NCBI RefSeq assembly: GCF_050920415.1
Contig: NZ_CP169309.1
Direction: 5' to 3' (one strand)
Length of the DNA: 64,000 bases
DNA from: Escherichia coli
GTDB taxonomy: Bacteria; Pseudomonadota; Gammaproteobacteria; Enterobacterales; Enterobacteriaceae
The notes below the pieces were generated by a model that was not told the origin of the DNA, ran no database searches, and saw nothing but the letters and a program-made list of their open reading frames with translations. Shown here in pieces: positions 9,918 to 40,236 of this stretch. The first letter of the stretch is position 1, and each line of letters starts with the position of its first letter. The translations under genes were made by a program, and so were the position numbers.

Positions 9918-10210
9918 ATGCCCGCGATAAATAAACTGTCTATTCCCCTATCATTATTCTCAGCGCTTGCAAGGCTTGAACGGTAAGAACAAGCAAACAC
10001 GACCACCATTTTGCTGTTCATAGCCGCTTGCTGGAAATTAGCCGACCTCACTCATTCTCACCGTTCAAAGCATGCCCCCGTTTTACCCCTACGTAATTGT
10101 GAACGCCAGCAGAGTTTTTTATGCGTTTACGGATATGGAAAGCGGCTCGGAGAGAAAAGCTAAAGATAGGGAAGTTACAAAAAAAATCGCGAGATACATC
10201 GCATAAAACA

Positions 10211-10584: not shown

Positions 10585-16133
<5,549 letters not shown>

Positions 16134-16296
16134 TTAAACGGCTTAACAAAAATCCAGTAATATGGATTAAAAAGCAGACTAAACCCCAAATATTTCTTAT
16201 GTTTTACTTTAGACCTATTCACGGTGGTTATTGTGTGCAAATACGTCTCTTGTTACAACCTTAACCCCAATGACCGATTTTCGGGAGAGCGACACC

Positions 16297-16935
16297 ATGA
16301 GTTTATTTGATAAAAAGCATCTGGTTTCCCCCGCCGATGCCCTGCCTGGACGTAACACCCCGATGCCCGTAGCCACGCTGCATGCGGTCAATGGTCACTC
16401 AATGACCAATGTACCTGACGGAATGGAGATTGCCATTTTTGCGATGGGTTGTTTCTGGGGTGTGGAGCGTCTGTTCTGGCAGTTACCCGGCGTTTACAGC
16501 ACCGCCGCAGGTTACACCGGCGGATATACGCCAAACCCCACTTATCGGGAAGTGTGCTCCGGTGATACTGGTCATGCCGAAGCGGTACGCATTGTTTACG
16601 ATCCTTCCGTCATCAGCTATGAGCAGTTGCTACAGGTATTTTGGGAGAATCACGATCCCGCCCAGGGAATGCGTCAGGGCAATGACCACGGCACGCAGTA
16701 TCGTTCAGCGATTTATCCGCTGACCCCAGAACAGGATGCCGCCGCTCGTGCCAGTCTGGAGCGTTTTCAGGCGGCGATGCTTGCCGCCGATGACGATCGT
16801 CACATCACCACGGAAATCGCTAACGCCTCACCATTTTATTATGCCGAAGATGACCACCAGCAATATCTGCATAAAAACCCATATGGTTACTGTGGAATTG
16901 GCGGAATTGGCGTCTGTCTGCCGCCGGAAGCATAG
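16297..16935 (+). CDS. msrA: Peptide methionine sulfoxide reductase A
   Basis: ORF track starts at 16231; ATG 16297 gives [20 protein letters not shown]... (212 aa) with the catalytic GCFWG motif. Confidence 0.95.
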
Positions 16936-16981
16936 CGTTACGGTTACAAATTCAGATTGTTGATAAAGTGAGCTTTGTATA

Positions 16982-17092
16982 TGCCGGATGCGGCGTAAAC
17001 GCCTTGCCAGGCCTACAAAACCCTCAAAATTCAATGCATTGCAGAGACTTCGTAGGCCTGAACAGCATAGCGCATCAGGCAGTTTTGCATTT
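16982..17092. repeat. REP/BIME cluster
   Basis: GCCGGATGCGGCGTAAACGCCTT...AGGCCTAC and GTAGGCCTG...CGCATCAGGC units between msrA and ytfL. Confidence 0.85.
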
Positions 17093-17257
17093 ATCAGTCG
17101 TCTGAATTTTAACCCTCTGGCGACTTTACAGTACCTTACGCTATACTAGCCACTGAAAATGCCGGTTCACTTTCTTCGAATCGGCTTTCAATGTGTATTT
17201 CACACAAATTAATCAACTTCCCCTTCCGAGGATCTGGCCTGAAAGGTCGGATAAGAT

Positions 17258-18601
17258 ATGTTAAACAGTATTTTTGTCATACTCTGCTTGATCGCTGTAA
17301 GTGCGTTCTTCTCGATGTCCGAGATCTCACTTGCCGCTTCACGCAAAATCAAACTAAAACTGCTGGCTGATGAAGGCAATATAAATGCCCAACGCGTTCT
17401 GAATATGCAAGAAAATCCTGGCATGTTCTTTACCGTGGTACAAATCGGTCTTAACGCAGTGGCGATTCTCGGCGGTATTGTCGGTGATGCGGCGTTTTCT
17501 CCAGCTTTTCACAGCCTGTTCTCCCGCTATATGTCGGCGGAACTCTCTGAGCAACTGAGCTTTATTCTCTCTTTCTCGTTAGTAACTGGCATGTTTATCC
17601 TGTTTGCGGATTTAACTCCGAAACGCATCGGTATGATTGCGCCAGAAGCGGTGGCTTTGCGTATCATCAACCCGATGCGCTTCTGCCTGTACGTTTGCAC
17701 CCCGTTGGTGTGGTTCTTCAACGGCCTGGCGAACATGATCTTCCGTATCTTTAAACTGCCAATGGTACGTAAAGATGACATCACTTCTGATGACATCTAT
17801 GCAGTTGTGGAAGCAGGTGCACTGGCGGGCGTGTTACGTAAACAGGAACACGAGCTGATAGAAAACGTCTTTGAGCTGGAATCCCGTACCGTTCCGTCGT
17901 CAATGACACCGCGTGAAAACGTGATTTGGTTTGATCTCCACGAAGATGAGCAAAGTCTGAAGAATAAGGTGGCGGAACATCCGCACTCGAAATTTCTCGT
18001 CTGTAATGAAGATATTGACCACATCATCGGCTATGTCGATTCTAAAGACCTGCTGAACCGCGTGCTGGCTAACCAAAGCCTGGCACTGAACAGCGGCGTA
18101 CAAATTCGCAACACACTGATTGTGCCGGATACATTAACCCTTTCAGAGGCATTGGAAAGTTTTAAAACTGCGGGTGAAGACTTCGCGGTGATCATGAACG
18201 AGTACGCGCTGGTCGTTGGGATCATCACCCTCAACGACGTAATGACCACACTAATGGGCGATCTGGTCGGTCAGGGACTGGAAGAGCAGATTGTCGCCCG
18301 TGATGAGAACTCATGGTTGATTGATGGCGGCACCCCGATTGACGACGTAATGCGTGTGCTGGATATTGATGAGTTCCCGCAGTCAGGCAACTACGAAACC
18401 ATCGGCGGCTTTATGATGTTTATGCTGCGTAAAATCCCGAAACGCACCGACTCGGTGAAATTCGCCGGCTACAAATTTGAAGTGGTGGATATCGATAACT
18501 ACCGCATCGACCAGTTGCTGGTAACGCGGATCGACAGCAAGGCCACCGCCCTTTCGCCCAAACTGCCTGACGTTAAAGATAAAGAAGAAAACGTCGCGTA
18601 A
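17258..18601 (+). CDS. ytfL: Inner-membrane CNNM/CorC-family protein (DUF21-CBS-CorC) YtfL
   Basis: 447 aa ORF with N-terminal TM helices followed by a soluble C-terminal region. Confidence 0.93.
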   Translation: MLNSIFVILCLIAVSAFFSMSEISLAASRKIKLKLLADEGNINAQRVLNMQENPGMFFTVVQIGLNAVAILGGIVGDAAFSPAFHSLFSRYMSAELSEQLSFILSFSLVTGMFILFADLTPKRIGMIAPEAVALRIINPMRFCLYVCTPLVWFFNGLANMIFRIFKLPMVRKDDITSDDIYAVVEAGALAGVLRKQEHELIENVFELESRTVPSSMTPRENVIWFDLHEDEQSLKNKVAEHPHSKFLVCNEDIDHIIGYVDSKDLLNRVLANQSLALNSGVQIRNTLIVPDTLTLSEALESFKTAGEDFAVIMNEYALVVGIITLNDVMTTLMGDLVGQGLEEQIVARDENSWLIDGGTPIDDVMRVLDIDEFPQSGNYETIGGFMMFMLRKIPKRTDSVKFAGYKFEVVDIDNYRIDQLLVTRIDSKATALSPKLPDVKDKEENVA

Positions 18602-18616
18602 CCCCAAGAAACATCA

Positions 18617-18647
18617 ACGGCTCCTGAATCAGGAGCCGTCTTATTTA
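18617..18647 (+). terminator. Rho-independent terminator of ytfL
   Basis: ACGGCTCCTGA-A-TCAGGAGCCGT perfect hairpin followed by CTTATTT. Confidence 0.8.
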
Positions 18648-18663
18648 CTGCATAGCACTTTGG

Positions 18664-18870
18664 TTAAGCCATCTCTGTTTGCAGACGCATAACCTGACGG
18701 TTAACTTCGGACATCACTGACAAATGCAGCTTATCCTTCACTTTTGGGATAAGAATCTTACCCTTATCAAATTCAAAAGCGCCAACGTCCTTGATGTATA
18801 ACCGTCCACGGAACAGGATCTTTACGTACTTCGCCACCTGCAGTGGGTTGTACCGTTGGAAAATTTTCAT
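18664..18870 (-). CDS. ytfK: Small DUF1107 protein YtfK
   Basis: Start set to ATG 18868-18870 ([20 protein letters not shown]..., 68 aa) rather than the ORF-track extension. Confidence 0.88.
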
Positions 18871-19195
18871 TGTTATCTCCTGCTGAGTATTACGCCTTTG
18901 CGGTGCCACAATCGGCCCAACTATTATGAGGCGCAAATTTTAATGCTTAGTGACTATAGACTATCCGGGTAATGTTTCCACCGCGTATAACTTTTTTTAC
19001 CTAAAGGTTACAATTATTCAGAATTATCTTTTTACCGAAGCGCGGTCTTCAGTATAAGCATTCATTTTTCATATGATTTGTGCGCTTGACCGCAAACTGG
19101 CATCACACTTGCGGGAAATTCGATAAATAGCACATATGATTAAAATTCAGACCCCAAGTGGTCGGATCACCTGCATATCATAAGAAGGATACACC

Positions 19196-19750
19196 ATGAC
19201 CCTACGTAAGATTCTGGCACTCACCTGCCTGCTGTTGCCGATGATGGCTTCCGCACATCAGTTTGAAACCGGTCAACGAGTGCCACCGATAGGCATTACC
19301 GATCGGGGCGAGTTGGTGCTTGATAAAGATCAGTTTAGCTACAAAACCTGGAACAGCGCGCAGTTAGTGGGAAAAGTGCGAGTACTGCAACATATTGCTG
19401 GTCGCACCTCTGCAAAAGAGAAAAACGCGACGCTGATTGAAGCGATTAAATCAGCAAAGTTACCGCACGATCGTTACCAGACCACCACCATTGTGAACAC
19501 CGACGACGCGATTCCGGGTTCTGGCATGTTTGTGCGCAGCAGTCTGGAGAGTAATAAAAAGCTTTATCCCTGGTCGCAGTTTATTGTCGATAGCAATGGC
19601 ATCGCGCGCGGTGCCTGGCAGCTAGATGAAGAAAGTTCCGCTGTAGCGGTGCTGGACAAAGACGGTCGAGTGCAATGGGCCAAAGACGGTGCGCTCACTC
19701 AGGAAGAGGTGCAGCAAGTGATGAACCTGCTGCAAAAGTTGCTCAAATAA
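19196..19750 (+). CDS. ytfJ: Periplasmic protein YtfJ
   Basis: 184 aa ORF with signal peptide MTLRKILALTCLLLPMMASA; AAGGAT Shine-Dalgarno. Confidence 0.92.
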   Translation: MTLRKILALTCLLLPMMASAHQFETGQRVPPIGITDRGELVLDKDQFSYKTWNSAQLVGKVRVLQHIAGRTSAKEKNATLIEAIKSAKLPHDRYQTTTIVNTDDAIPGSGMFVRSSLESNKKLYPWSQFIVDSNGIARGAWQLDEESSAVAVLDKDGRVQWAKDGALTQEEVQQVMNLLQKLLK

Positions 19751-19783
19751 TGTTAATAACATAAATTCTGGAAAAATAAATTT

Positions 19784-19810
19784 CCCCTATCGATATATAT
19801 GGGATAGGGG
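19784..19810. terminator. Hairpin terminator between convergent ytfJ and ytfI
   Basis: CCCCTATC-loop-GATAGGGG stem with an A/T-rich tract on the minus-strand side. Confidence 0.6.
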
Positions 19811-19850
19811 AATTAAGTCTCTGAGTTTTTACGCCGAACTCATACTAGTA

Positions 19851-20774
19851 TCAATAACCCTTATTCGCGTTTAACGGTTTTACCTCTTTTTTAAACGCTT
19901 CAATGGTAGATTTATATTTCTTGTGAATCTTGTCTTCGGTATAATTACCGTTTGCGGCCAGATTTGCACTTACAATCGCTTCCACTTGCTCGGTTATTTC
20001 CACTTGTTGGTAACCTGCATTAACCAGAAAATTATAAATAAGAGAGTAATCTTCACCCTGCAAAAAAATATAAGAGCCAGTTCGAAGTTCCTCATCCCCT
20101 CCATAGATTTTAAGAGCAAAGCCCAAAGATTCTATGACCATGGCATAATTTCCATTATTTATTTTCTCGCAAAAATACCATCCTTCACATTCTTTAATGC
20201 TACCTCCTGGCCCTTCAAGTTCAAATTTACCCCGTTTTAATTTGCTTACTACATTCTCCAAATAAGCAGAATCGTAAGATAAGTTACCCGCCGCCTTCCG
20301 AAAATAACCGTTAATCCTTTCAGGTATGTCAGACTGTTTTTTCTGCAAAATATCATAGGCATACAATCTTCTATTTTGTGCTAGTGGAAATTCACGGTTT
20401 TTAAAGTCTATAAATGAGTTATACTCATTTATTGTTATAGGGATTTCTTCGTATTCAAATCCAGTGCCTCGCAATGTCATTGTATATTCGGCACCGTTAT
20501 CTTTAAGGCGGAAGCTGATAAGAAAATTATCCATGGAGTGAACGGTTTCATCTTTTAATGAAAGCACCTGATAACTATTTTTATCGATCTGTGTTGCTCT
20601 AAGAAAGAACTCCCTTAAAATTAACAGACTATCATAATTCGAAATCCAATCCCTTTTCTTAAATGCATGCTGAATATTATTAAAGAAATTATTTGAATGT
20701 ATTTTTGTATGCGATGACTTTACAAATAACTCCACTGCACCAAAAAAATTATTGTGTCTAATCTTGGGTAACAT
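19851..20774 (-). CDS. ytfI: Uncharacterized protein YtfI (AT-rich gene)
   Basis: 307 aa ORF, markedly AT-rich, flanked by AT-rich intergenic DNA; no recognisable domain. Confidence 0.8.
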   Translation of the reverse strand: MLPKIRHNNFFGAVELFVKSSHTKIHSNNFFNNIQHAFKKRDWISNYDSLLILREFFLRATQIDKNSYQVLSLKDETVHSMDNFLISFRLKDNGAEYTMTLRGTGFEYEEIPITINEYNSFIDFKNREFPLAQNRRLYAYDILQKKQSDIPERINGYFRKAAGNLSYDSAYLENVVSKLKRGKFELEGPGGSIKECEGWYFCEKINNGNYAMVIESLGFALKIYGGDEELRTGSYIFLQGEDYSLIYNFLVNAGYQQVEITEQVEAIVSANLAANGNYTEDKIHKKYKSTIEAFKKEVKPLNANKGY

Positions 20775-20986
20775 ATGACAACCTTATTATATTTGGTTAT
20801 TCTATGTCGCCATTAAATATCTTGTTAAAGAAGTAAACTATCAAAAAATGCTCATTATTAAGATATAACTCATTAGCGTTAGAATATTTACACTTTAAAT
20901 ACAATCCCTTTATATCTATAACTTTTTAGGTTGGAAACAAATCAGGATGGCAGAATCAGGAAATACACTGTTTCTGCCATATATAT

Positions 20987-21727
20987 TTAATAAATAGAGA
21001 CTCTGAACCCAGGATTCAGGAACGACTCGCGCGGGGTATAATCCAGCGGTTTACCCTGCCAGTCGTGAACGTGCGCTCCGGCCGCTGCCGCAACTGCGTG
21101 ACCGGCGGCGGTGTCCCAAATATTGGTTGGCCCGAAACGCGGGTAAAGCTGCGCCTGCCCTTCCGCCACCAGGCAGAATTTCAGCGAAGAGCCGATAGAC
21201 GTGGTTTGATGTTCGCCAAGCTGTTGCAGATACTCTTTCAGCTCCGCATCCGCATGGGAACGGCTGATCACCACCAGCGGCGGGCGCGCATCGCGGACCT
21301 GAATCTGCTTGCGTACACCGCACTCTTCTTTCCAGGCTTTGCCGTCTGCCGCGCTGTACATTACGTTCATTACCGGCGCATACACCACACCTAAAATCGG
21401 TTTGCCGTGGTCGATGAGCGCAATATTAACGGTGAATTCACCATTACGTTTAATAAACTCTTTAGTACCATCCAGCGGGTCTACCAGCCAGTAACGCTGC
21501 CAGTGTTGACGGACTTCCCAACCGGGAGGATCTTCTTCAGAAAGGACCGGAATATCCGGTGTCAGCGTACGTAAACCGTCCATGATAACGGTGTGTGCGG
21601 CAATATCCGCTGCCGTTACCGGAGAATTGTCCGCTTTGCTGACGACGTCCATCGGTTTCGTCCCGTCGTAGACCTGCATAATGGCATCGCCTGCATTCCG
21701 TGCAAGCTGGCATACTTGATCTAACAT
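20987..21727 (-). CDS. cysQ: 3'(2'),5'-bisphosphate nucleotidase
   Basis: 246 aa [23 protein letters not shown]...; inositol-monophosphatase-family motifs (DPLDGT, WDTAAG). Confidence 0.95.
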
Positions 21728-21916
21728 TTCTCCACCTCGTCTCTGTGAGCGGTGTTAACTTATTGTTTTACTTATACCCTATCGTTAAAGAATGCGCCAA
21801 CTGTGATAGTGTCATCATTTTCAAAGCGTTAAATTGTGGCATTCTTCACTGTTCTAAAAGTAAGAGGTTTATTCTCCCTTTTCTTTCGAATTCCCGATGA
21901 TAAAAGGATGTCCCTG

Positions 21917-23860
21917 ATGATTAAGTTTAGCGCAACGCTCCTGGCCACGCTGATTGCCGCGAGTGTGAATGCAGCGACGGTCGATCTGCGTATCATGGAA
22001 ACCACTGATTTGCATAGCAACATGATGGATTTCGATTATTACAAAGACACCGCCACGGAAAAATTCGGACTGGTACGTACGGCAAGCCTGATTAACGATG
22101 CCCGCAATGAAGTGAAAAACAGCGTACTGGTCGATAATGGCGATTTGATTCAGGGGAGTCCGCTGGCCGATTACATGTCGGCGAAAGGATTAAAAGCCGG
22201 AGATATTCATCCGGTCTATAAGGCATTGAATACGCTGGACTATACCGTCGGCACACTCGGTAACCACGAGTTTAACTACGGTCTGGATTACCTGAAAAAT
22301 GCACTGGCAGGAGCGAAATTCCCTTATGTAAACGCCAACGTCATTGACGCTAAAACCAAACAGCCCATGTTTACACCGTATTTGATTAAAGACACCGAAG
22401 TGGTCGATAAAGACGGAAAAAAACAGACGCTGAAGATTGGCTATATTGGCGTCGTACCGCCGCAGATTATGGGATGGGATAAAGCTAATTTATCTGGCAA
22501 AGTCACCGTTAACGATATAACGGAAACTGTGCGCAAGTACGTACCTGAAATGCGCGAGAAAGGTGCCGATCTCGTTGTCGTTTTGGCGCATTCTGGTCTC
22601 TCTGCCGATCCGTATAAAGTGATGGCAGAAAACTCAGTTTATTACCTCAGTGAAATTCCGGGCGTTGATGCCATTATGTTTGGCCATGCTCACGCCGTCT
22701 TCCCGAGTAAAGATTTTGCGAATATCAAAGGGGCTGATATCGCCAAAGGCACGCTGAACGGCGTTCCGGCGGTAATGCCGGGCATGTGGGGCGATCATCT
22801 CGGCGTGGTCGATCTGCAACTCAATAATGACAGCGGAAAATGGCAGGTGACGCAGGCGAAAGCGGAAGCACGGCCAATTTACGATATCGCCAATAAAAAA
22901 TCCCTCGCGGCGGAAGACAGCAAGCTGGTAGAAACACTTAAAGCCGATCACAACGCCACACGCCAGTTTGTCAGCAAACCAATCGGTAAATCTGCCGACA
23001 ATATGTATAGCTATTTGGCGCTGGTGCAGGACGATCCGACCGTGCAGGTGGTGAATAATGCACAAAAAGCGTATGTCGAACATTACATTCAGGGCGATCC
23101 GGATCTGGCAAAACTGCCGGTGCTTTCAGCTGCCGCACCGTTTAAAGTCGGTGGTCGCAAAAATGATCCGGCAAGCTATGTGGAGGTGGAAAAAGGTCAG
23201 CTGACTTTCCGTAATGCTGCCGATCTTTATCTCTATCCCAATACGCTGATTGTGGTGAAAGCCAGCGGTAAAGAGGTGAAAGAGTGGCTGGAGTGCTCCG
23301 CCGGACAGTTTAACCAGATTGATCCTAACAGCACGAAACCGCAGTCACTCATCAACTGGGATAGTTTCCGCACCTATAACTTTGACGTCATTGATGGTGT
23401 GAATTATCAGATTGATGTTACTCAGCCCGCCCGCTATGACGGCGAGTGCCAGGTGGTTAATGCCAATGCGGAAAGAATTAAGAACCTGACCTTTAACGGC
23501 AAGCCGATTGATCCGAACGCGATGTTCCTCGTTGCCACCAATAACTATCGCGCTTACGGCGGCAAATTTGCAGGTACGGGCGATAGCCATATCGCTTTTG
23601 CTTCACCGGATGAGAACCGCTCGGTGCTGGCAGCGTGGATTGCAGATGAGTCGAAGCGTGCGGGAGAAATTCACCCGGCGGCAGATAACAACTGGCGTTT
23701 AGCACCGATTCCCGGCGATAAGAAACTGGATATCCGTTTCGAAACCTCTCCGTCAGATAAAGCCGCAGAGTTTATTAAAGAGAAAGGGCAGTATCCGATG
23801 AATAAAGTCGCGACCGATGATATCGGCTTTGCGATTTATCAGGTGGATTTGAGTAAGTAA
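21917..23860 (+). CDS. cpdB: 2',3'-cyclic-nucleotide 2'-phosphodiesterase / 3'-nucleotidase
   Basis: ORF track starts at 21836; ATG 21917 ([19 protein letters not shown]..., 647 aa) with signal peptide and metallophosphoesterase GNHEF motif. Confidence 0.95.
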
Positions 23861-23887
23861 AACACTTTTCCCGTCTATAGATATGAA

Positions 23888-23982
23888 CCGCATCCGGCAT
23901 TTATTGGCGGATGCGGTGCTGCTGCATCTTATCCGCCCTACAGGTCATGAACCGTAGGCCGAATAAGCGCAGCGCATCCGGC
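23888..23982. repeat. REP/BIME cluster
   Basis: CGCATCCGGCA...GCGGATGCGGTG...CCGTAGGCCGAATAAGCGCAGCGCATCCGGC units between cpdB and the ytfH stop. Confidence 0.8.
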
Positions 23983-23984
23983 TG

Positions 23985-24365
23985 TTATGCCGCACGTTCA
24001 TCCCGCACTGCCAACACCTCAGGCAAATTCAACTCAATCCAGTCCGCCAGTGCAGCAACCTTTTCGCTCACCTGCTCGCCCAGCGGCGTGAGGCTGTATT
24101 CCACATGCGGCGGCACCACCGGATAAGAGATACGGTTAAGAAACCCATCCTGCTCTAACGCCTGTAACGACTGCGCAAGCATCTTTTCACTCACCCCACC
24201 CATCTTGCGGCGCAGGTCGCTAAAACGGTGCGTACCTTCGCGAAGCGCGACCAGAATCAATACCCCCCAACGGCTGGTGACGTGTTTCAACACCTCGCGC
24301 GACGGGCACTGTTCGGCGAAGAGGTTACCCTCTTTCAGTTGTTGCGACAGGCTAGCCTGGCTCAT
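23985..24365 (-). CDS. ytfH: HxlR-type winged-helix transcriptional regulator
   Basis: 126 aa ORF MSQASLSQQLKEGNLFAEQCPSREVLKHVTSRWG...; divergent from ytfG. Confidence 0.9.
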   Translation of the reverse strand: MSQASLSQQLKEGNLFAEQCPSREVLKHVTSRWGVLILVALREGTHRFSDLRRKMGGVSEKMLAQSLQALEQDGFLNRISYPVVPPHVEYSLTPLGEQVSEKVAALADWIELNLPEVLAVRDERAA

Positions 24366-24387
24366 TCATACTTACCTTTTTGTACGT

Positions 24388-24404
24388 ACTTACTAAAAGT
24401 AAGT
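24388..24404. promoter_or_regulatory. Perfect palindrome ACTTAC-TAAAA-GTAAGT in the ytfH/ytfG divergent region (candidate operator)
   Basis: 6 bp perfect inverted arms with a 5 bp A/T spacer, centred between the two divergent start codons. Confidence 0.3.
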
Positions 24405-24452
24405 TTAGGTGGTAGCGTATTTAAACACAAGACAAACCGATGGAGGCTTCCC

Positions 24453-25313
24453 ATGATCGCAATTACCGGCGCAACCGGCCAACTTGGTCACCATGTTATT
24501 AACTCCTTACTGAAAACCGTTCCTGCCAGCCAAATAGTGGCTATCGCGCGTAACCCGGCAAAAGCACACGCACTGACAGCACAAGGCATTACTGTACGTC
24601 AGGCTGACTACGGCGATGAAGCCGCACTGACATCTGCGCTTCAGGGTGTGGAAAAACTGCTGCTGATCTCTTCCAGCGAAGTGGGGCAACGTGCCCTGCA
24701 GCATCGAAATGTTATTAATGCCGCTAAGGCGGCGGGCGTGAAATTTATCGCTTATACCAGCCTGCTACATGCTGATACCTCCCCGCTCGGCCTCGCCGAT
24801 GAGCACATCGAGACGGAGAAAATGCTGGCTGTTTCTGGCATCGCTTACACCTTGCTGCGCAACGGCTGGTACACCGAAAACTATCTCGCCAGCGCCCCGG
24901 CAGCACTGGAGCACGGCGTATTTATCGGTGCCGCGGGCGATGGCAAAATTGCCTCAGCTACGCGAGCTGATTATGCGGTAGCTGCGGCGCGCGTAATTAG
25001 CGAAGCAGGTCACGAAGGCAAGGTTTATGAACTGGCAGGTGATAGCGCCTGGACACTGACACAGTTAGCGGCGGAACTCACCAAACAGAGCGGCAAACAG
25101 GTTACCTATCAAAACCTGAGCGAAGCTGATTTCGCCGCGGCGCTGAAAAGCGTCGGTCTGCCTGACGGGCTGGCGGATATGCTGGCAGATTCTGACGTTG
25201 GCGCATCGAAAGGCGGCCTGTTTGATGACAGCAAAACGCTGAGCAAATTGATTGGCCGCCCAACGACAACATTAGCCGAGAGCGTAAGCCATCTTTTTAA
25301 TGTTAATAACTAG
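24453..25313 (+). CDS. ytfG: NAD(P)H:quinone oxidoreductase (NmrA-like)
   Basis: ORF track starts at 24228; GGAGG Shine-Dalgarno then ATG 24453 gives MIAITGATGQLGHHVINSL... (286 aa) with a Rossmann GATGQLG motif. Confidence 0.93.
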   Translation: MIAITGATGQLGHHVINSLLKTVPASQIVAIARNPAKAHALTAQGITVRQADYGDEAALTSALQGVEKLLLISSSEVGQRALQHRNVINAAKAAGVKFIAYTSLLHADTSPLGLADEHIETEKMLAVSGIAYTLLRNGWYTENYLASAPAALEHGVFIGAAGDGKIASATRADYAVAAARVISEAGHEGKVYELAGDSAWTLTQLAAELTKQSGKQVTYQNLSEADFAAALKSVGLPDGLADMLADSDVGASKGGLFDDSKTLSKLIGRPTTTLAESVSHLFNVNN

Positions 25314-30398: not shown

Positions 30399-31029
30399 AT
30401 GAAGGGTCAACCAGAAGCCAGCTAAGGATCGTCTCTTTGATGACCTTACGCCTGGCTTCCAGTGCCTGCGGTGAAACCATACTGATGTGATAAACCAGGC
30501 CAAGCGTATGTTGGTTGATCAAATAATATCCTCCAAGAGCAGCAATATTAATATTCACCTGCAACGGGTCGATATCTGGCTTAAAAATATTGCGCCGTTT
30601 GCCTTCAGCTAATAATGACTCCATTAACTGTAAGTGTGCGTGGTTAATTTCTAAAAGGCGCTGTGATTTTGCATAATGCACCCCTTTACTCTGGTTTTCA
30701 CTATGCACAATTTTTAAAAACCAGGGGTTAGCAATGTAATAATCCCAGGTGAAATCGATAATTTTCTCAATGGCTTTTTGTGGCGGAAGACCTGAGAAAT
30801 CAAGGGATTTTTCTTTTTGCCGAATATCATTCCAGGTATATTCCAGCACTTCGATAAATAAATTTTCTTTATTACCAAAGTGATGATAAACCGTCTGTTT
30901 ACTGCACTCCGCGGCCTTGACGATATTATCGACTCTGGCCCCTTCGTAACCATATTCGGCAAATTCATTAACCGCACATAACAACAGCTTTTCCTTCAGG
31001 CTTTGTACGTTGCTGGTATCAAGATACAT
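30382..31029 (-). CDS. TetR/AcrR-family transcriptional regulator (islet regulator)
   Basis: ORF track start 31089 is GTG; ATG 31027-31029 gives [58 protein letters not shown] (TetR N-terminal HTH), 215 aa. Divergent from the downstream operon; 3' end overlaps the ytfB 3' end by 17 bp. Confidence 0.85.
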
Positions 31030-31151
31030 TCCGCTTCCCCACGTCTTCTTCGTGATGACTATCTTAACCCGATTTGTTAGAAGCTCCACTAAAATGGCTA
31101 AAAACTCGCAATTTCATCGGGTTATCAAATGCTCTGTGATCATTATCGCAT

Positions 31152-31173
31152 ATCAACCAACTAGATGGTTGAT
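31152..31173. promoter_or_regulatory. Candidate TetR operator (22 bp palindrome) in the islet divergent promoter
   Basis: ATCAACCA-ACTAGA-TGGTTGAT: perfect 8 bp inverted arms with a 6 bp spacer, between the regulator start (31029) and the operon start (31241). Confidence 0.4.
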
Positions 31174-31240
31174 CTTTCTTGCCACACATTGCAAGCTAAT
31201 CGTCACTTAAGGAAATAATATTCAAAAAGAGGGTTATTGT

Positions 31241-32032
31241 ATGAAGTCAACACGTCCTGTTGCTGTCATCACTGGAGCCGCACGTGGTATTGGAAAGGGC
31301 TGTGCACTGGAACTTGCGCGTGGCGGATTTAATCTGCTGATTAATGATCGTCCGGATGCCGACAGCGTAGAAAAATTACATGCCACACAACAAGAATGTC
31401 TGGCGGAAGGCGTGGAAGTGATTTGCTTCCCTGCTGATGTTGGCGATCTCTCCCTTCATGAAGAGATGCTCGACGCGGCGCAAAACCAGTGGGGACGTCT
31501 GGACTGTCTACTCAACAACGCAGGCATTTCAGTGAAAAAACGCGGTGACCTCCTCGACCTCGAACCAGACAGCTTCGACCAAAACATTGCCATTAACACC
31601 CGTGCGCCGTTCTTCCTTGCTCAGGCATTCAGTAAGCGATTACTGGCACAGCCGAAACCGGAAGCAGAACTGCCGCACCGCTCGATTATTTTTGTCAGTT
31701 CCATAAACGCCATCATGCTGGCGATGAATCGCGGCGAATATACCATTGCAAAAACTGCCGTCTCCGCCGCAGCTCGTCTGTTTGCCGCTCGCCTTTGCAA
31801 TGAACAAATTGGCGTTTATGAAGTGCGCCCTGGCCTAATCAAAACCGATATGACCATTCCGGCAACGGCTTATTACGACGAACTGATTGCTAAGGGGTTA
31901 GTGCCGTGGGGACGTTGGGGTTATCCGGCTGATATTGCCTCAACGGTCCGCGCGATGGCGGAAGGCAAACTGATTTACACCTGTGGTCAGGCGGTCGCCA
32001 TCGACGGCGGCTTAAGTATGCCGCGCTTCTGA
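31241..32032 (+). CDS. Short-chain dehydrogenase/reductase (SDR) family oxidoreductase
   Basis: 263 aa ORF; TGAARGIG cofactor-binding motif, NNAG, and catalytic Y-x3-K (EYTIAK); AGAGGG Shine-Dalgarno. Confidence 0.85.
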   Translation: MKSTRPVAVITGAARGIGKGCALELARGGFNLLINDRPDADSVEKLHATQQECLAEGVEVICFPADVGDLSLHEEMLDAAQNQWGRLDCLLNNAGISVKKRGDLLDLEPDSFDQNIAINTRAPFFLAQAFSKRLLAQPKPEAELPHRSIIFVSSINAIMLAMNRGEYTIAKTAVSAAARLFAARLCNEQIGVYEVRPGLIKTDMTIPATAYYDELIAKGLVPWGRWGYPADIASTVRAMAEGKLIYTCGQAVAIDGGLSMPRF

Positions 32033-32041
32033 GGCTGAATC

Positions 32042-32884
32042 ATGAGAGATCTGTTACAACGCCCGGATTTATTCAGTATCAATACTGCGACACTGGGCTA
32101 TAAAACGCCGCTACCTGCCATTATTGATGCCTGCGCCGCACGCGGTATTGGCGCGATTGCCCCCTGGCGCAGGGAGTTGCAGGGTGAAGATCTCCAGCAA
32201 ATCGCCCGCCAGCTTGCTGCCAGTAACATGAGCGTTTCCGGTTTGTGTCGTAGCACCTATTACACCGCGCCGACGCTGACGGAACGCAAACTGGCGATTG
32301 ATGATAACCGCCGGGCGCTGGACGACGCCGCTGTACTGAACGCCGCCTGTTATATGCAGGTGGTTGGCGGTCTGCCAATGGGAACAAAAGATCTGTACGA
32401 AGCACGGGAACAGGTGAAACAAGGGATTCGCCAGTTGCTGCCACATTCGAAAGAGGTCGGCGTGCCAATTGCACTGGAGCCACTGCACCCGATGACTGCT
32501 GCCGATCGTTCTTGTCTGTGCACATTACGTCAGGCGCTGGACTGGTGTGATGAACTCGATCCCGATGGCGAATTTGGCCTCGGCGTGGCGGTAGATGTCT
32601 ACCATGTCTGGTGGGACCCGGATCTCGCCAGTCAGATCCTGCGTGCCGGAAAACGCATCCTCGCGTTTCATGTTTCCGACTGGCTGGTGCCAACCACCGA
32701 TTTAGTCAATGATCGGGGAATGCCGGGAGATGGCGTCATTAATATTCCCTCTATTCGTCGGCTGGTTGAAAACGCCGGATTTAATGGCGCTATTGAACTG
32801 GAAATATTCTCGCCGTACTGGTGGCAGAAAGATATTAACAGCACGCTGGATATTAGCGTCGATCGCATCGCGCATTATTGCTAA
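32042..32884 (+). CDS. Sugar-phosphate isomerase/epimerase-like TIM-barrel enzyme (xylose-isomerase-like fold)
   Basis: 280 aa ORF with the LEP / FHVSD signature pattern typical of this fold; 9 nt downstream of the SDR stop. Confidence 0.7.
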   Translation: MRDLLQRPDLFSINTATLGYKTPLPAIIDACAARGIGAIAPWRRELQGEDLQQIARQLAASNMSVSGLCRSTYYTAPTLTERKLAIDDNRRALDDAAVLNAACYMQVVGGLPMGTKDLYEAREQVKQGIRQLLPHSKEVGVPIALEPLHPMTAADRSCLCTLRQALDWCDELDPDGEFGLGVAVDVYHVWWDPDLASQILRAGKRILAFHVSDWLVPTTDLVNDRGMPGDGVINIPSIRRLVENAGFNGAIELEIFSPYWWQKDINSTLDISVDRIAHYC

Positions 32885-32893
32885 GGAATGATC

Positions 32894-33670
32894 ATGAGTG
32901 ACCAACCCGTTCTGTTCAGCAGAGCGGCGGCTTCCTGCCGCCTGACATTGAACCGTGAAGATAAATGTCATGCTATTAATGAAGAAATGATCGAATCTCT
33001 CGACCATTATTTAAATGAAATTGAAAACGACACCACATTACGATTAGTCGAATTAACGGCAACCGGCGATAAATTCTTTTGTGCGGGCGGCGATATTAAA
33101 TCGTGGTCAGCCTATTCGCCATTAGATATGGGCAGAAAATGGATTAAACGCGGCAATGACGTTTTTAATCGCCTGCGCAATTTACCTCAATTAACGGTTG
33201 CGAATCTCAACGGTCATACTATCGGCGGTGGTATTGAACTTGCCTTGTGCTGCGATATTCGTATTGCCCGCCCCAGTGCGAAATTCTCTAATCCGGAAGT
33301 AATGCTCGGCATGGTGCCTGGCTGGATGGGCATTGAACGCGTGCTTAATCAGGTCGGTCCGGTGGTCGGTCGCCAGATGCTGATGCTGGGTAAACGCCTG
33401 ACGGCGCAGGAAGCTCAGGCGGCGAATTTAATTGATGAAGTGGTAGAAAAAGAACAGGTGGAAAGCTGGATGGCGAATCAGTTAGCGCAGCTGGAAAAAT
33501 GCGGTCCGGTGGCGCTCGCACATATCAAGCAACTGATTCTGGCTCTAGAAAATAAACATGCTGATTACCCGCACCAGTTACTGGCTGGATTAATGTCCGC
33601 CACTCAGGATTGCCAGCAGGCGACGCGCGCATTTGCCGAAAAAAGTAGCGTGAGCTTCCAAAATCAATAA
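32894..33670 (+). CDS. Enoyl-CoA hydratase/isomerase (crotonase) family protein
   Basis: Crotonase hallmarks FFCAGGDIKSW and GHTIGGGIELALCCDIRIA; ATG 32894 is preferred over 32888 on Shine-Dalgarno spacing. Confidence 0.85.
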   Translation: MSDQPVLFSRAAASCRLTLNREDKCHAINEEMIESLDHYLNEIENDTTLRLVELTATGDKFFCAGGDIKSWSAYSPLDMGRKWIKRGNDVFNRLRNLPQLTVANLNGHTIGGGIELALCCDIRIARPSAKFSNPEVMLGMVPGWMGIERVLNQVGPVVGRQMLMLGKRLTAQEAQAANLIDEVVEKEQVESWMANQLAQLEKCGPVALAHIKQLILALENKHADYPHQLLAGLMSATQDCQQATRAFAEKSSVSFQNQ

Positions 33671-33679
33671 GGAAATTGT

Positions 33680-35221
33680 ATGCGTAAGATAACAACCGCC
33701 GAGACACTGGCGGCGCAAATTCAGGACGGCGCAACCATTGCCATTAGCGGTAATGGCGGCGGCATGGTGGAAGCGGACCATATTCTGGCTGCTATTGAAG
33801 CGCGTTTCCTGCAAACCGGACACCCGCGCGATCTGACATTAATCCACTCGCTGGGCATTGGCGATCGCGACTGCAAAGGCACTAACCGCTTCGCTCATGC
33901 AGATATGCTCAAACGCATCATTGCCGGACATTTTACCTGGTCGCCCAAGATGCAGGATCTGGTGAAAAACAATGCTATTGAAGCCTACTGCTTCCCTGGT
34001 GGCGTAATTCAGGCACTGCTGCGGGAGATCGGTGCCGGACGTCCAGGGCTTTTTACCCACGTTGGACTGGGATCGTTTGTTGATCCGCGCAACGGCGGCG
34101 GTAAGTCGAACGCCAGCACCACTGAGGATCTGGTAGAACTGATTGAAATCGACGGTGAAACCAAACTTCGTTATCGCCCTTTCAAAGTGGATTACGCGAT
34201 TTTGCGTGGCACTTATGCTGATCCGCGTGGCAACGTCAGCCTCGAAGAAGAGGCGATTGATATGGATAGCTATTCCATGGCGCTGGCAGCACACAACAGC
34301 GGCGGCAAAGTGTTCGTACAGGTGCGCGATGTGCTGGAAGCTGGTGCCATTGAACCACGCCGGGTCAAATTACCGGGCATTCTGGTTGATGGCATCGTTG
34401 AACACCGCGAACAACCACAAACCTATCTTGGCGGTTACGATCTGACCATTAGCGGTCAGCATCGCCGTCTAAGTTCTAACGACGCAATTGAACTGGTTAG
34501 TCATCCGGTGCGCCGCCTGATTGCCCGTCGGGCAGCACGCGAACTGGTAGCTGGCGCTTCAACCAACTTTGGCTTTGGCATTCCCGGCGGCATTCCTGGG
34601 GTTGCACTGCGCGAAGGCGTGCCTTATCAAAGTTTATGGCTGAGCGTCGAGCAAGGCGTGCATAACGGTATGATGCTGGATGATGCTCTGTTCGGCTGCG
34701 CCCGTAACGCCGATGCCATTATTCCATCACTCGATCAATTCGAATTCTACAGTGGCGGAGGGATCGATATCACCTTCCTCGGCATGGGAGAGATGGATCA
34801 GCATGGTAACGTCAACGTCTCCCATCTCAATGGCAATCTCATTGGCCCCGGCGGATTTCTCGAAATTGCGCAAAACGCCCGTAAAGTGGTGTTCTGTGGC
34901 ACGTTCGACGCCAAAGGTAGCAAGATTGATGTAACACCAGATGGCTTGCATATCGCCCAGTCAGGTCAAATCCCTAAACTGGTTACCCAGGTGGAAAAAA
35001 TCACTTTTAGCGCCGCCTACGCACAGCAAAGCGGTCAGGAAGTGTTGTATATCACTGAACGTGCAGTATTCCAGTTAACGGCAGAAGGCGTTGAATTAAT
35101 TGAAATCGCGCCGGGTGTGGAGATTGAACGCGACATTCTGCCGCATATGGCTTTCCGTCCAATTATCAATCAGCCACGCCTGATGGAAAGTAGCCTGTTT
35201 ACGCCGATGGAGGATGCATGA
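33680..35221 (+). CDS. Fused family-I CoA-transferase (acyl-CoA:acetate/3-ketoacid CoA-transferase-like)
   Basis: 513 aa ORF about the size of fused alpha/beta family-I CoA-transferases, with glycine-rich loops (ISGNGGG, SGGGIDITFLGMGE); AAGGA Shine-Dalgarno. Confidence 0.7.
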   Translation: MRKITTAETLAAQIQDGATIAISGNGGGMVEADHILAAIEARFLQTGHPRDLTLIHSLGIGDRDCKGTNRFAHADMLKRIIAGHFTWSPKMQDLVKNNAIEAYCFPGGVIQALLREIGAGRPGLFTHVGLGSFVDPRNGGGKSNASTTEDLVELIEIDGETKLRYRPFKVDYAILRGTYADPRGNVSLEEEAIDMDSYSMALAAHNSGGKVFVQVRDVLEAGAIEPRRVKLPGILVDGIVEHREQPQTYLGGYDLTISGQHRRLSSNDAIELVSHPVRRLIARRAARELVAGASTNFGFGIPGGIPGVALREGVPYQSLWLSVEQGVHNGMMLDDALFGCARNADAIIPSLDQFEFYSGGGIDITFLGMGEMDQHGNVNVSHLNGNLIGPGGFLEIAQNARKVVFCGTFDAKGSKIDVTPDGLHIAQSGQIPKLVTQVEKITFSAAYAQQSGQEVLYITERAVFQLTAEGVELIEIAPGVEIERDILPHMAFRPIINQPRLMESSLFTPMEDA

Positions 35222-37299
35222 GTCAGCTTGATGACACCCTCCTTGATGCGCTGACGCACGTCACTTTCCCGAAGGGTTTTGTGTCAGCAGAGCCAGCGTC
35301 AATTGTCACGGTTGAAGATGTCGATTACCCGATCTGGCAAGTTGATGCGCTAGTCGTTGGTAGCGGCGCGGCAGGGCTGCGCGCAGCGGTTGAACTTAAG
35401 CGCCGCCAGCAAAATGTGCTGATCGCCACCGCCGGGTTATATATGGGGACATCGGCATGTTCTGGTTCCGATAAACAGACGCTGTTTACCGCCGCTACCG
35501 CGGGCAACGGCGATAACTTCGCTAAACTGGCGGAAGCACTGGCGAGCGGTGGGGCGATGGATCACGACACCGCTTATGTCGAAGCGGTAGGTTCTCTGCA
35601 CACTCTTGGCGGGTTGCAATATCTTGGTCTGGAATTACCGGAAGATCGCTATGGCGCAATTCTTCGTTATCAAACCGACCATGACGAAGCCGGGCGAGCA
35701 ACCTCGTGTGGGCCGCGTACTTCTCGCCTAATGGTGAAAGTATTGCTGGAGGAAGTGCAGCGTCTTGCCATACCACTACTGACCAGTGCAACGGTGATTA
35801 AGCTCCTGCATCAGCACGGAGAGAATGGCGAAGATCGCGTTGCGGGGGCTATTCTCGCAACCGGTTCCCGCGCCTATAACCCTTGGGGGCTGGCTATTGT
35901 GACGGCGCCCAATGTGGTACTGGCAACGGGCGGACCGGGCGAGCTTTATCGCGACAGTGTTTATCCACATAAATGCTTCGGCTCGCTGGGGCTGGCGCTG
36001 GAAGAAGGTCTGACGCTAACCAATCTGACCGAAAGCCAGTTTGGTATAGGCACGCCGCGCAGCACGTTTCCGTGGAATTTGTCCGGCACCTATGTACAGG
36101 TGATCCCATATATCTATTCCGTGGATGCCGGGGGCAACGAGTATAACTTCCTCGCAGATTACTATCGCACCACCCAGGAGCTGGCTTCAAACATCTTCCG
36201 TAAAGGCTATCAGTGGCCGTTTCACGCCACACGAGTGATGGATTTTGGCTCCAGCTTGTTAGATATGGCAGTAGCGCAAGAGCAGCAATCAGGGCGTCAG
36301 GTATTTATGGATTTCAATCGCAATCCTGAACCTGTGCCGGGTGACCTGCCGTTCTCATTAGATCGACTGGACGACGACGTTCGCGCGTATCTGGAAAATA
36401 ACGACGCTCTGGCACCATCGCCCATCGAACGACTGCAACGAATGAATCCGCTGTCTATCTCGCTGTATAAGATGCACGGTTACGATCTCACCACGCAGCC
36501 ATTGCAGTTTGCCATGAATAATCAGCATATGAATGGCGGCATTGAAGTGGATATCTGGGGGCAAACCTCCCTGTCCGGCTGTTTCGCCGTGGGGGAAGTT
36601 GCTGGCACACACGGCGTCACTCGCCCTGGTGGTGCGGCATTGAATGCCGGGCAGGTTTTTGCTGTTCGTCTGGCACGTTTTATTGGTTGCACGCAAAAGC
36701 GGTCCGTTGAGGATGATGTCGCGCAGCTAGTAGCCTCACCTCTGCATACAATCAGAGAAGTTATCGCTCAGGCACTGGCAAACGAGAACGGAATGACGCT
36801 GGCAACGGTAAAAGAAAAAATCCAGGCGCGAATGTCTGATTACGCGGGATTTATTTGCCATGCTGATAAAGTTCGTCACGCCGCCCGTGACGCCATGCTG
36901 TTAAATGAATTTGCGCAGCAACATGGTCTAACTATCAACCACGCCGGTGAAATTGCCGAGCTATTTATGTGGCGGCATATGGCATTAACATCCGCTGCGG
37001 TGTTAAGCCAGCTATCACATTATATTGATGCTGGCGGTGGTAGTCGTGGAGCGCGGATGATTATTGATCCACAAGGAGAATATCTTCCACAAACTCGTCG
37101 CGGCGCAATCGAAGATTGGCGTTTTCGCTCTGAACAAGCTGAAGATAAAAATCACAGACTAACTCTCTCCTTTTCACAAGGTTTATTTATTAATGAAATT
37201 AAGTTCTTGAGAAACTTACCGCATATTAAAGGTATTTACTTTGAGAAGAATTGGCCTGATTTTCTTAACGGAACAATTTATCAGACACGGCATGAATAA
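35218..37299 (+). CDS. FAD-binding flavoprotein of the fumarate reductase / succinate dehydrogenase / L-aspartate oxidase superfamily
   Basis: 693 aa ORF; N-terminal dinucleotide-binding motif DALVVGSGAAGLRAAVEL; ATG overlaps the CoA-transferase stop (ATGA); the last ~300 nt are AT-rich. Confidence 0.75.
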   Translation: MSQLDDTLLDALTHVTFPKGFVSAEPASIVTVEDVDYPIWQVDALVVGSGAAGLRAAVELKRRQQNVLIATAGLYMGTSACSGSDKQTLFTAATAGNGDNFAKLAEALASGGAMDHDTAYVEAVGSLHTLGGLQYLGLELPEDRYGAILRYQTDHDEAGRATSCGPRTSRLMVKVLLEEVQRLAIPLLTSATVIKLLHQHGENGEDRVAGAILATGSRAYNPWGLAIVTAPNVVLATGGPGELYRDSVYPHKCFGSLGLALEEGLTLTNLTESQFGIGTPRSTFPWNLSGTYVQVIPYIYSVDAGGNEYNFLADYYRTTQELASNIFRKGYQWPFHATRVMDFGSSLLDMAVAQEQQSGRQVFMDFNRNPEPVPGDLPFSLDRLDDDVRAYLENNDALAPSPIERLQRMNPLSISLYKMHGYDLTTQPLQFAMNNQHMNGGIEVDIWGQTSLSGCFAVGEVAGTHGVTRPGGAALNAGQVFAVRLARFIGCTQKRSVEDDVAQLVASPLHTIREVIAQALANENGMTLATVKEKIQARMSDYAGFICHADKVRHAARDAMLLNEFAQQHGLTINHAGEIAELFMWRHMALTSAAVLSQLSHYIDAGGGSRGARMIIDPQGEYLPQTRRGAIEDWRFRSEQAEDKNHRLTLSFSQGLFINEIKFLRNLPHIKGIYFEKNWPDFLNGTIYQTRHE

Positions 37300-37319
37300 T
37301 ATTGCAAAGGTTAATCACT

Positions 37320-37796
37320 ATGCGAAATATAATCAGATCTATTAATTCATTGCTTTCCACATTGAACATTACCATTTTGGCAATTATTGTGATGTGCGTT
37401 ACATGGCAAGTAGTAGCACGATTTATCTTTAAAAGCCCCAGCATTTTTACAGATGAACTTAGTCGTTTACTATTTATTTGTCTTGGACTTTTTGGTGGTG
37501 CTTATACTGCCGGACAAAACCGACATCTGGCCATTGATCTTCTGCCAATGATGCTAAAAGGAAAATCCCGACGTTATTTATTCTTATGTATTCAGGCCAT
37601 TGTTATTCTTTTTGCCTCTATCATTATGGTTTATGGTGGCGGGTTATTAACACTGGACACATTTGATTCAGGGCAAACTTCTCCGGCTTTAGGCTGGCAG
37701 ATGGGATATATTTACATGAGCATTCCAATAAGTGGCATCCTTATTATTATATACACCATAGATACAGTTTTAACCGAACTTAAACAACCACTCTAA
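37320..37796 (+). CDS. TRAP transporter small permease (DctQ-like)
   Basis: ORF track start 37302 is TTG; ATG 37320 with AAGG Shine-Dalgarno gives a ~158 aa four-TM protein; strongly AT-rich. Confidence 0.8.
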   Translation: MRNIIRSINSLLSTLNITILAIIVMCVTWQVVARFIFKSPSIFTDELSRLLFICLGLFGGAYTAGQNRHLAIDLLPMMLKGKSRRYLFLCIQAIVILFASIIMVYGGGLLTLDTFDSGQTSPALGWQMGYIYMSIPISGILIIIYTIDTVLTELKQPL

Positions 37797-37818
37797 AATA
37801 AGTAGGGATGGAGAAAAC

Positions 37819-39120: not shown

Positions 39121-39172
39121 TATGCATTAACTGGCGGCACCTGCCGCCATATTTATTAGAAAAGGAACATCT

Positions 39173-40144: not shown

Positions 40145-40201
40145 TTACCTTCATGGGGCTGCTTATTGTGGCCCTTATCGATATCAGCAAGTGCTCGCTA
40201 T

Positions 40202-40236
40202 AAAAGCAAAACGCCGACCAATGGTCGGCGTTTTTA
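40202..40236. terminator. Bidirectional rho-independent terminator (islet operon / rplI)
   Basis: ACGCCGACCA-A-TGGTCGGCGT perfect hairpin flanked by AAAAGCAAA upstream and TTTTT downstream; sits between the convergent TRAP binding-protein gene and rplI. Confidence 0.85.

Follow-up and report, generated by a model that had tools for sequence, protein, structure and literature searches.

The ytfI islet of Escherichia coli: a probably old AT-rich insertion between ytfJ and cysQ that encodes a weakly constrained orphan protein

In the window, the 64-kb stretch of E. coli DNA that was analysed, a single gene stands between two core genes, ytfJ and cysQ, and is enclosed with two hairpins in an AT-rich islet (Table 1). 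The gene is the orthologue of K-12 ytfI (b4215; WP_000937655.1, 312 aa), which occupies the same slot in the same orientation, co-directional with cysQ, and shares with it the junctions, the flanking hairpins and full-length homology. Against a protein cluster of 312 aa (P0002), YtfI of the window aligns with 78% identity across 97% of the query (E = 3.5e-149). RefSeq names the K-12 allele 'protein YtfI' and the window allele 'hypothetical protein'; compared with the former, the latter is rare, is 307 aa long and differs in its C-terminal tail. An AAGG Shine-Dalgarno sequence stands 7 nt 5' of the ATG, and the start codon, the Shine-Dalgarno sequence and the N-terminus are conserved among alleles.

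Table 1. Features of the ytfJ-ytfI-cysQ region, in positions of the window.
Feature	Position	Strand	Description
ytfI islet	19747..20986	.	1240 bp, ~33% GC; delimited by alignment with K-12 (filled), ATCC 8739 (empty) and outgroup junctions
ytfI CDS	19851..20774	-	307 aa, 35.6 kDa, pI 7.0; rare allele
ytfI upstream/promoter region	20775..20946	-	~27% GC, the most AT-rich part of the islet; presumed H-NS nucleation region
Hairpin 3' of the cysQ stop	20947..20980	-	Presumed cysQ terminator or 3'-end stabiliser
Hairpin between the convergent ytfJ and ytfI stops	19782..19812	.	Presumed terminator of ytfI (possibly also of ytfJ)
ytfJ, core flanking gene	19196..19750	+	Last codons rebuilt by the insertion
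cysQ, core flanking gene	20987..21727	-	Stop codon TAA

The base composition of the islet sets it apart from its surroundings. With a GC content of 0.332 (33.2%), positions 19751-20986 form the minimum among all 1236-bp stretches of the 64 kb, for which the mean is 0.508 (sd 0.041) and of which 0.08% are as low. The initial annotation had described the ytfI ORF and both adjoining intergenic regions as AT-rich by comparison with ytfJ and cysQ, and the computed values agree: GC is 0.346 in the ORF (GC3 0.318), 0.320 at 19751-19850 and 0.274 in the 212 bp at 20775-20986, against 0.512 in ytfJ (GC3 0.568) and 0.549 in cysQ (GC3 0.583). Codon usage gives the same picture, in that a GC3 of 32% in ytfI stands against 57-58% in its neighbours and rare codons make up 10.7% of the gene as compared with 2-5% of theirs, while the residues F, Y, I, N and K account for 38% of YtfI and for 18-28% of the neighbouring proteins. 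The AT-rich stretch had been placed at 19751-20986, which is close to the true insert of 19747-20986 obtained by alignment of the junctions.

Three allele types of ytfI can be distinguished. Between the window and K-12 alleles the islet DNA is 85% identical and the protein 76-78% identical, and the homology covers both intergenic regions as well as the gene. The third type occurs in a genome labelled E. coli SCPM-O-B-8794 (locus L004), which resembles the cryptic clades; its junctions are the same, and it is 77% identical to the window allele in DNA and 69% in protein, with flanks at ~91%. Among 5426 complete E. coli genomes, ytfI is found in 1622 (~30%) and a contiguous empty junction in 3795; the K-12 type accounts for ~1600 genomes and the window type (at least 95% identical) for 20. 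The initial annotation had proposed a survey of related genomes, and ytfI proves on this evidence to be a presence/absence polymorphism, carried by ~30% of E. coli, rather than a fixed gene. The window strain itself is unusually divergent, with only 94.5-95.5% identity to K-12 in each of the three alignable blocks, and positions 19100-21800 are 100% identical to E. coli strain MFDS1022581 (NZ_CP169399.1).

Outside E. coli, the junction was surveyed by searching a single genome of each GTDB species for YtfJ, after which CysQ and YtfI were located at each locus. In ~75 other species representatives of the Enterobacteriaceae, ytfJ and cysQ lie tail to tail with a gap of 1-30 bp or an overlap; these empty-site taxa include Salmonella, Citrobacter, Klebsiella, Raoultella, Enterobacter, Kluyvera, Kosakonia, E. 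whittamii and two further Escherichia species. The junction is likewise empty in three cryptic Escherichia lineages. ATCC 8739, an E. coli strain with the empty site, has an 11-bp overlap between ytfJ and cysQ, and in empty-site genomes a 2701-bp query corresponds to a span of only 1456 bp. Since ytfJ and cysQ are contiguous in ~75 species, in the cryptic lineages and in 3795 E. coli genomes, the filled state is derived and ytfI is an insertion.

The limits of the insertion are visible at nucleotide level. Compared with the ancestral-type junction (…TTGCTCAATAAATAG…), homology of the window stops at ~19746 and restarts at ~20987. All filled alleles end ytfJ in ...LLQKLLK*, as against ...LLHKL(L/I)NK* at empty sites, and cysQ stops with TAA in the window, where other genera and the cryptic clades, at their empty junctions of ancestral type, have TGA. 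The empty junction of E. coli (TTAATTAATAAATAG; …AAATTAATTAATAAATAG) could be either the ancestral state or the scar of a secondary loss, and under both readings ~4 changes in 19 nt are required. Neither an integrase nor a tRNA nor an IS element was found. A 10-nt inverted repeat (I20; 19793-19802 and 20977-20986) is not conserved in K-12, so that no conserved terminal repeats are present, and no convincing target-site duplication was seen, at most 3-4 bp being possibly duplicated at the junction. The sequence TTAATAA recurs at the two ends of the islet, and CTGC..CAT may form a microhomology, but in AT-rich DNA neither is distinguishable from chance, and both were set aside. An origin from a mobile element was also rejected, there being no phage match by tblastn. 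Four YtfI matches came from the plasmid collection, all in E. coli entries that measure 0.66-4.9 Mb and appear to be either chromosomes under a wrong label or replicons of very large size. At the same junction, accessory cargo unrelated to ytfI is carried in E. albertii, Citrobacter youngae and Kluyvera.

The suggestion of the initial annotation that the gene was horizontally acquired is borne out by the ancestral empty site in ~75 species together with the foreign composition; these two lines carry the argument, because no donor, integrase or target-site duplication was found. On this reading, a single-gene xenogeneic islet of ~1.24 kb entered the 11-bp 3' overlap of ytfJ and cysQ once, in an ancestral Escherichia. 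The insert parted the two genes, remade the final codons of ytfJ together with the cysQ stop, and brought with it two stable hairpins, one after cysQ and one between ytfJ and ytfI, which may act as terminators.

The age of the insertion can be gauged from the divergence of the three allele types. Between the window and K-12, dS is 0.37 for ytfI, 0.14 for ytfJ and 0.19 for cysQ; between the window and the third allele type the corresponding values are 0.85, 0.71 and 0.54, and between K-12 and the third type 0.71, 0.56 and 0.66. The dS of ytfI is thus 1.1-2.6 times that of its flanks in the same pairs, and its dN (0.135-0.19) is 10-35 times theirs (0.004-0.017). The additional divergence of the islet DNA is mainly in dN, and the time over which the alleles have diverged in place is therefore about equal to the age of these Escherichia lineages. 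Common junctions and a dS in ytfI that roughly tracks the flanks point to one old insertion, from which at least three allele lineages have since diverged. The co-divergence is only approximate, ytfI having about twice the dS of its flanks between the window and K-12. That the gene is old, as had been supposed from its composition, is accordingly supported by three allele lineages with the same junctions and dS of 0.37-0.85 against 0.14-0.71 in the flanks.

Recombination and loss have overlaid this history. E. coli 2013C-4282 and STN0717-20, which carry the window-type allele, are 99-100% identical to the window over ~15750-25250, whereas in the 2 kb to the left of this block they are 95-99% identical to K-12 and 94-96% identical to the window. 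This mosaic identity implies that the islet moves in ~10-kb haplotype blocks by homologous recombination in the flanking core genes. K-12 (filled) and ATCC 8739 (empty) are nearly identical in their flanks (ytfJ dS 0.024), from which it follows that gain or loss has also been recent, within phylogroups. The islet is also destroyed on occasion, by one route seen in ETEC1738, in which IS1 stands in place of ytfI and the 3' end of ytfJ.

The islet contains two stable hairpins. The one 3' of the cysQ stop, the arms of which form inverted repeat I8, folds at -17 kcal/mol (z = -4.8), with none of 200 shuffled sequences as stable. No identical run shared by the three allele lineages, which elsewhere diverge by 15-23%, is longer than its 34 nt. 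A role as terminator of cysQ or stabiliser of its 3' end is probable; because the insertion broke the ancestral overlap of ytfJ and cysQ, such an element would have had to be supplied by the islet. The hairpin between the convergent stops has a G+C-rich stem of 10 bp (inverted repeat I18, 100% complementary), folds at -20.6 kcal/mol on the minus strand (z = -3.2) and at -19.2 kcal/mol on the plus strand (z = -2.3), and is followed on the minus strand by the U-rich run AUUUAUUUUU. It is kept in the K-12 and L004 alleles, and presumably terminates ytfI and possibly ytfJ. No RNA family was found within the islet by an Rfam scan. Upstream of ytfI, a promoter-like TTAACA-18-TAGAAT at 20828-20799 on the minus strand was discounted, its hexamers not being conserved in K-12 and the number of such sites not exceeding that in shuffled sequence.

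Binding of H-NS to ytfI has been described for the K-12 allele. In the ChAP-seq study of Higashi et al. (2016), K-12 ytfI is used to illustrate inserted segments that are particular to a strain and to which H-NS binds (PMC4720273, S10 Fig). In K-12 the binding reaches from ytfI to cpdB, cysQ, ytfJ and ytfK, while strains SE11 and SE15, which are without ytfI, show no such binding (PMC4720273). In the window islet, the H-NS motif TCGATAAATT (at most two mismatches) occurs at 6 sites, or ~4.9 per kb as compared with 1.5 per kb window-wide, an enrichment of ~3-fold. The ~33% GC islet of the window would, to judge from its composition, likewise be bound and silenced by H-NS, with binding spreading to its neighbours as in K-12. 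Like the H-NS-silenced xenogeneic islets of E. coli and Salmonella (PMC4720273), it is AT-rich, absent from relatives and elevated in dN; it differs from them in being very small, in holding a single gene, in sitting at a tail-to-tail gene overlap and in having no association with an integrase, tRNA or IS element.

Beyond its use as an H-NS example, ytfI appears in the literature only as a disputed sigma-32 ChIP peak and in lists of overexpression or stress genes; a search on b4215 returned nothing relevant. The sigma-32 signal is the top 'disputed' ChIP-chip peak in K-12 (PMC3870955). One possible reading, which is ours and not that of the cited study, is that the peak may be an artefactual or promiscuous signal of an AT-rich H-NS region. 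Overexpression of ytfI from the ASKA collection raised tolerance to HOCl, ytfI being one of 23 unrelated genes to do so (PMC8228696). This is the only phenotype reported for ytfI and is non-specific.

The ORF shows the marks of a real coding gene. Across the three allele pairs its dN/dS is 0.37, 0.22 and 0.27 (Fisher p 1e-7 to 1e-20), and at the composition of ytfI a stop-free run of 307 codons has a chance of 6e-12, yet the ORF is intact in all three lineages. The low dN/dS and the intact ORFs together indicate a real, weakly constrained protein, and purifying selection on ytfI, weak as it is, is thereby shown and implies that YtfI has some role. Constraint is unevenly distributed: dN/dS is ~0.1-0.3 over codons 1-140 and ~0.4-0.8 over codons 140-300, and nowhere exceeds 1. 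With no transmembrane or hydrophobic segment and no signal peptide, YtfI would be a soluble cytoplasmic protein of ~35.6 kDa with a more constrained N-terminal than C-terminal half.

Homologues of YtfI are confined to its own alleles. A word-indexed search of 5.8 billion sequences returned none outside Escherichia/Shigella, all 17 matches being E. coli or Shigella YtfI alleles or fragments, and truncated forms occur commonly among the protein clusters. When 1.84 billion representatives were searched exhaustively with a profile, only YtfI fragments came back besides one spurious match, a 1441-aa TPR-repeat protein that was rejected as a relative since the similarity consists of 13 repeat-amplified stretches. 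Searches of Pfam gave no match above threshold (DUF4844, E = 0.11), NCBIfam gave nothing, PHROG nothing significant and PADLOC-DB 2.0 no significant match, its sole match being to Cas6b over 40 residues (14.4 bits, E = 0.006). The best PDB match by profile search, a nitrogenase (E = 0.44), was rejected. The LisH motif (PF08513) scores 19.9 bits (E = 7e-4) at residues 244-257 (SLIYNFLVNAGYQQ), below the gathering threshold of 21.6; LisH is a eukaryotic dimerisation motif, for which YtfI offers no supporting context, and the match is of value as a lead only. The LisH-like helix lies within a stretch in which the majority of columns do not vary among alleles. Among the ORFan genes of Enterobacteriaceae, which likewise have no homologue beyond one genus and are short, AT-rich, fast-evolving and under weak purifying selection, ytfI is longer than is typical (307 aa) and has been kept in three deep allele lineages.

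Secondary-structure predictions give a mixed alpha/beta protein. AlphaFold2 models of the full length (pLDDT 38) and of the C-terminal 136 aa (pLDDT 51) are both too poor to use, and Foldseek against the PDB with the latter gave a best E of 0.41 and TM of at most 0.25. The initial annotation had reported no recognisable catalytic motif and an unknown function. The former is upheld by the Pfam, NCBIfam and PDB searches, none with a match above threshold, and the latter by the lack of any family or solved-structure match; the structure prediction that it had proposed yielded models of too low a confidence to be informative. Because no catalytic or family signature is present, it is possible, and here offered as a tentative suggestion, that YtfI works through binding to a partner, not as a catalyst, and does so only once silencing by H-NS is relieved.

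Other readings of the islet have to be weighed against an old insertion with a functional gene. The ORF might be a functionless passenger, silenced by H-NS, with selection keeping only the cis-acting hairpins that end cysQ and ytfJ. The most conserved element of the islet is indeed the 34-nt cysQ hairpin and not the coding sequence, the dN of ytfI is 10-35 times that of its neighbours, and the gene is dispensable in 70% of genomes and often truncated in the protein clusters. A passenger would not be expected, however, to retain a dN/dS significantly below 1 in each of the three pairs, a 307-codon frame open across lineages 15-23% divergent, or a conserved start codon, Shine-Dalgarno sequence and N-terminus, and this explanation is considered unlikely.

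A second alternative assigns ytfI to a new family of conflict genes, with a part, for example, in phage defence, abortive infection or immunity. Balancing selection would hold it at intermediate frequency, and this would account for a polymorphism of such long standing, for allele lineages that run so deep and for the faster evolution of the C-terminal half. In keeping with this are the frequency of ~30%, the filled and empty states in near-identical backgrounds, the three deep allele lineages, the rise of dN/dS from 0.1-0.3 in the N-terminal half to 0.4-0.8 in the C-terminal half, and a junction that behaves as a variable hotspot, with unrelated cargo in E. albertii, C. youngae and Kluyvera. 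The comparison with known conflict genes is less favourable: there is no meaningful PADLOC match and no PHROG match, no nuclease, NTPase, TIR, Sir2 or toxin motif was found in YtfI, no region has a dN/dS above 1, no partner gene accompanies ytfI, which is silenced by H-NS in K-12, and neither phage nor genuine plasmid copies were seen. A role in conflict thus seems rather improbable. The same low probability is attached to a broader proposal, in which YtfI would found an Escherichia-restricted family with a new fold, kept as a balanced polymorphism in conflict or in an H-NS-gated stress response, and the ytfJ/cysQ junction would be an integrase-free integration hotspot across genera that takes up small cargo of unrelated kinds.

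That ytfI is not foreign at all, being an ancestral enterobacterial gene or one born de novo in Escherichia that became AT-rich in place and was lost elsewhere, draws on the failure to identify a donor in 15 billion proteins and on the co-divergence of the alleles with their flanks, but appears close to refuted by the outgroup junctions, as it needs dozens of independent precise losses that each restored the 11-bp overlap, as a gene born de novo would still have to come with 1.24 kb of DNA that was absent from this site in the ancestor, and as a GC3 of 32% against ~57% in the genome is beyond drift over the observed dS.

The locus is, in all likelihood, the product of one old, integrase-free insertion of foreign AT-rich DNA, which would be silenced by H-NS; it persists as a recombining presence/absence polymorphism and encodes a genuine, weakly constrained orphan protein. 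Much of this is already known, since the gene, its strain-specific distribution and its binding by H-NS have previously been published or annotated in RefSeq. The present analysis adds proof from outgroups that the empty site is ancestral, and shows that three allele lineages co-diverge with their flanks, that the islet lies in a recombinant haplotype block, that the hairpin after cysQ is invariant, that the protein is strictly an orphan and that the ytfJ/cysQ junction of E. albertii, Citrobacter youngae and Kluyvera holds cargo unrelated to ytfI.

The ytfI islet by itself opens no long-standing question, being a textbook example of a small AT-rich accessory islet targeted by H-NS, with its K-12 allele already published as an illustration (PMC4720273). 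It does offer a clean natural system, in which a single insertion, a defined ancestral empty site and three deep allele lineages can be compared across ~1600 filled and ~3800 empty genomes, and in which purifying selection acts on a gene with no homologue in ~15 billion proteins. For E. coli and its relatives, it is thereby a tractable case for the roles of orphan genes, for the divergence of xenogeneic DNA under H-NS and for the rebuilding of terminators at convergent gene ends.

The window strain, E. coli MFDS1022581, shares only ~95% identity with K-12 in every aligned block of the window, which is an unusual divergence for a genome labelled E. coli. Around ytfI, ordinary E. coli strains carry a block of ~10 kb that is 99-100% identical to that of the window strain and, for this reason, comparison of the sequences indicates inter-lineage recombination in this region. 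Other differences from K-12 include the absence of the chpS-chpB toxin-antitoxin module, for which K-12 has ~650 bp between ytfP and ppa, and the presence of a block that is not found in K-12, where ~1.1 kb with yjfZ lies instead. This block carries genes for an SDR, a xylose-isomerase-like TIM barrel, an enoyl-CoA hydratase, a CoA-transferase and an FAD-binding oxidoreductase, together with a TRAP transporter (DctQ, DctM, DctP), and within its oxidoreductase ORF lies the patch whose GC content is the second lowest in the window.

The most conserved element of the AT-rich ytfI islet is a hairpin directly downstream of cysQ. No difference is present in the hairpin among the three ytfI allele lineages, whereas the remainder of the islet diverges by 15-23%, and the hairpin may have a role beyond that of a simple terminator. 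On the other side of cysQ, the intergenic region with cpdB strongly matches the Rfam family for the sRNA ES239 (RF02756; 119.5 bits, E = 2.5e-23); the match is 5'-incomplete, being truncated where the searched stretch stops.

A visible route of islet loss is provided by E. coli ETEC1738, in which a copy of IS1 stands in place of ytfI and of the ytfJ 3' end, and only the last ~150 bp of the islet, adjoining cysQ, remain. In other species, namely E. albertii, Citrobacter youngae and Kluyvera, the tail-to-tail junction of ytfJ and cysQ is occupied by unrelated cargo, including in C. youngae a membrane protein with a tail rich in Cys/Gly; the junction therefore looks like a recurrent insertion hotspot.

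Features of the window and of ytfJ/cysQ loci in other genomes (L-numbers, with their own coordinates)
Feature	Location	Size, GC	Content
Region without chpS-chpB	window ~9936-10079		
Near-identical block	window ~15750-25250	~10 kb	ytfI and surroundings
Hairpin	window 20947-20980	34 nt	
ES239 match	window 21794-21900, minus strand		sRNA
Block not in K-12	window 30782-40203	9.4 kb	enzymes, transporter
Low-GC patch	window 36651-37201	~39-41% GC	
ETEC1738 replacement	L086 2246-2943		IS1
E. albertii NBRC 107761 insert	L009 4550-6062	1.5 kb, 33% GC	385-aa pentapeptide-repeat ORF
C. youngae ATCC 29220 insert	L028 4550-6681	2.1 kb	TIGR04222 membrane protein, radical SAM/SPASM enzyme
Kluyvera insert	L063 and L066, 4550-5463	0.9 kb	S11 D-Ala-D-Ala-carboxypeptidase-like ORF
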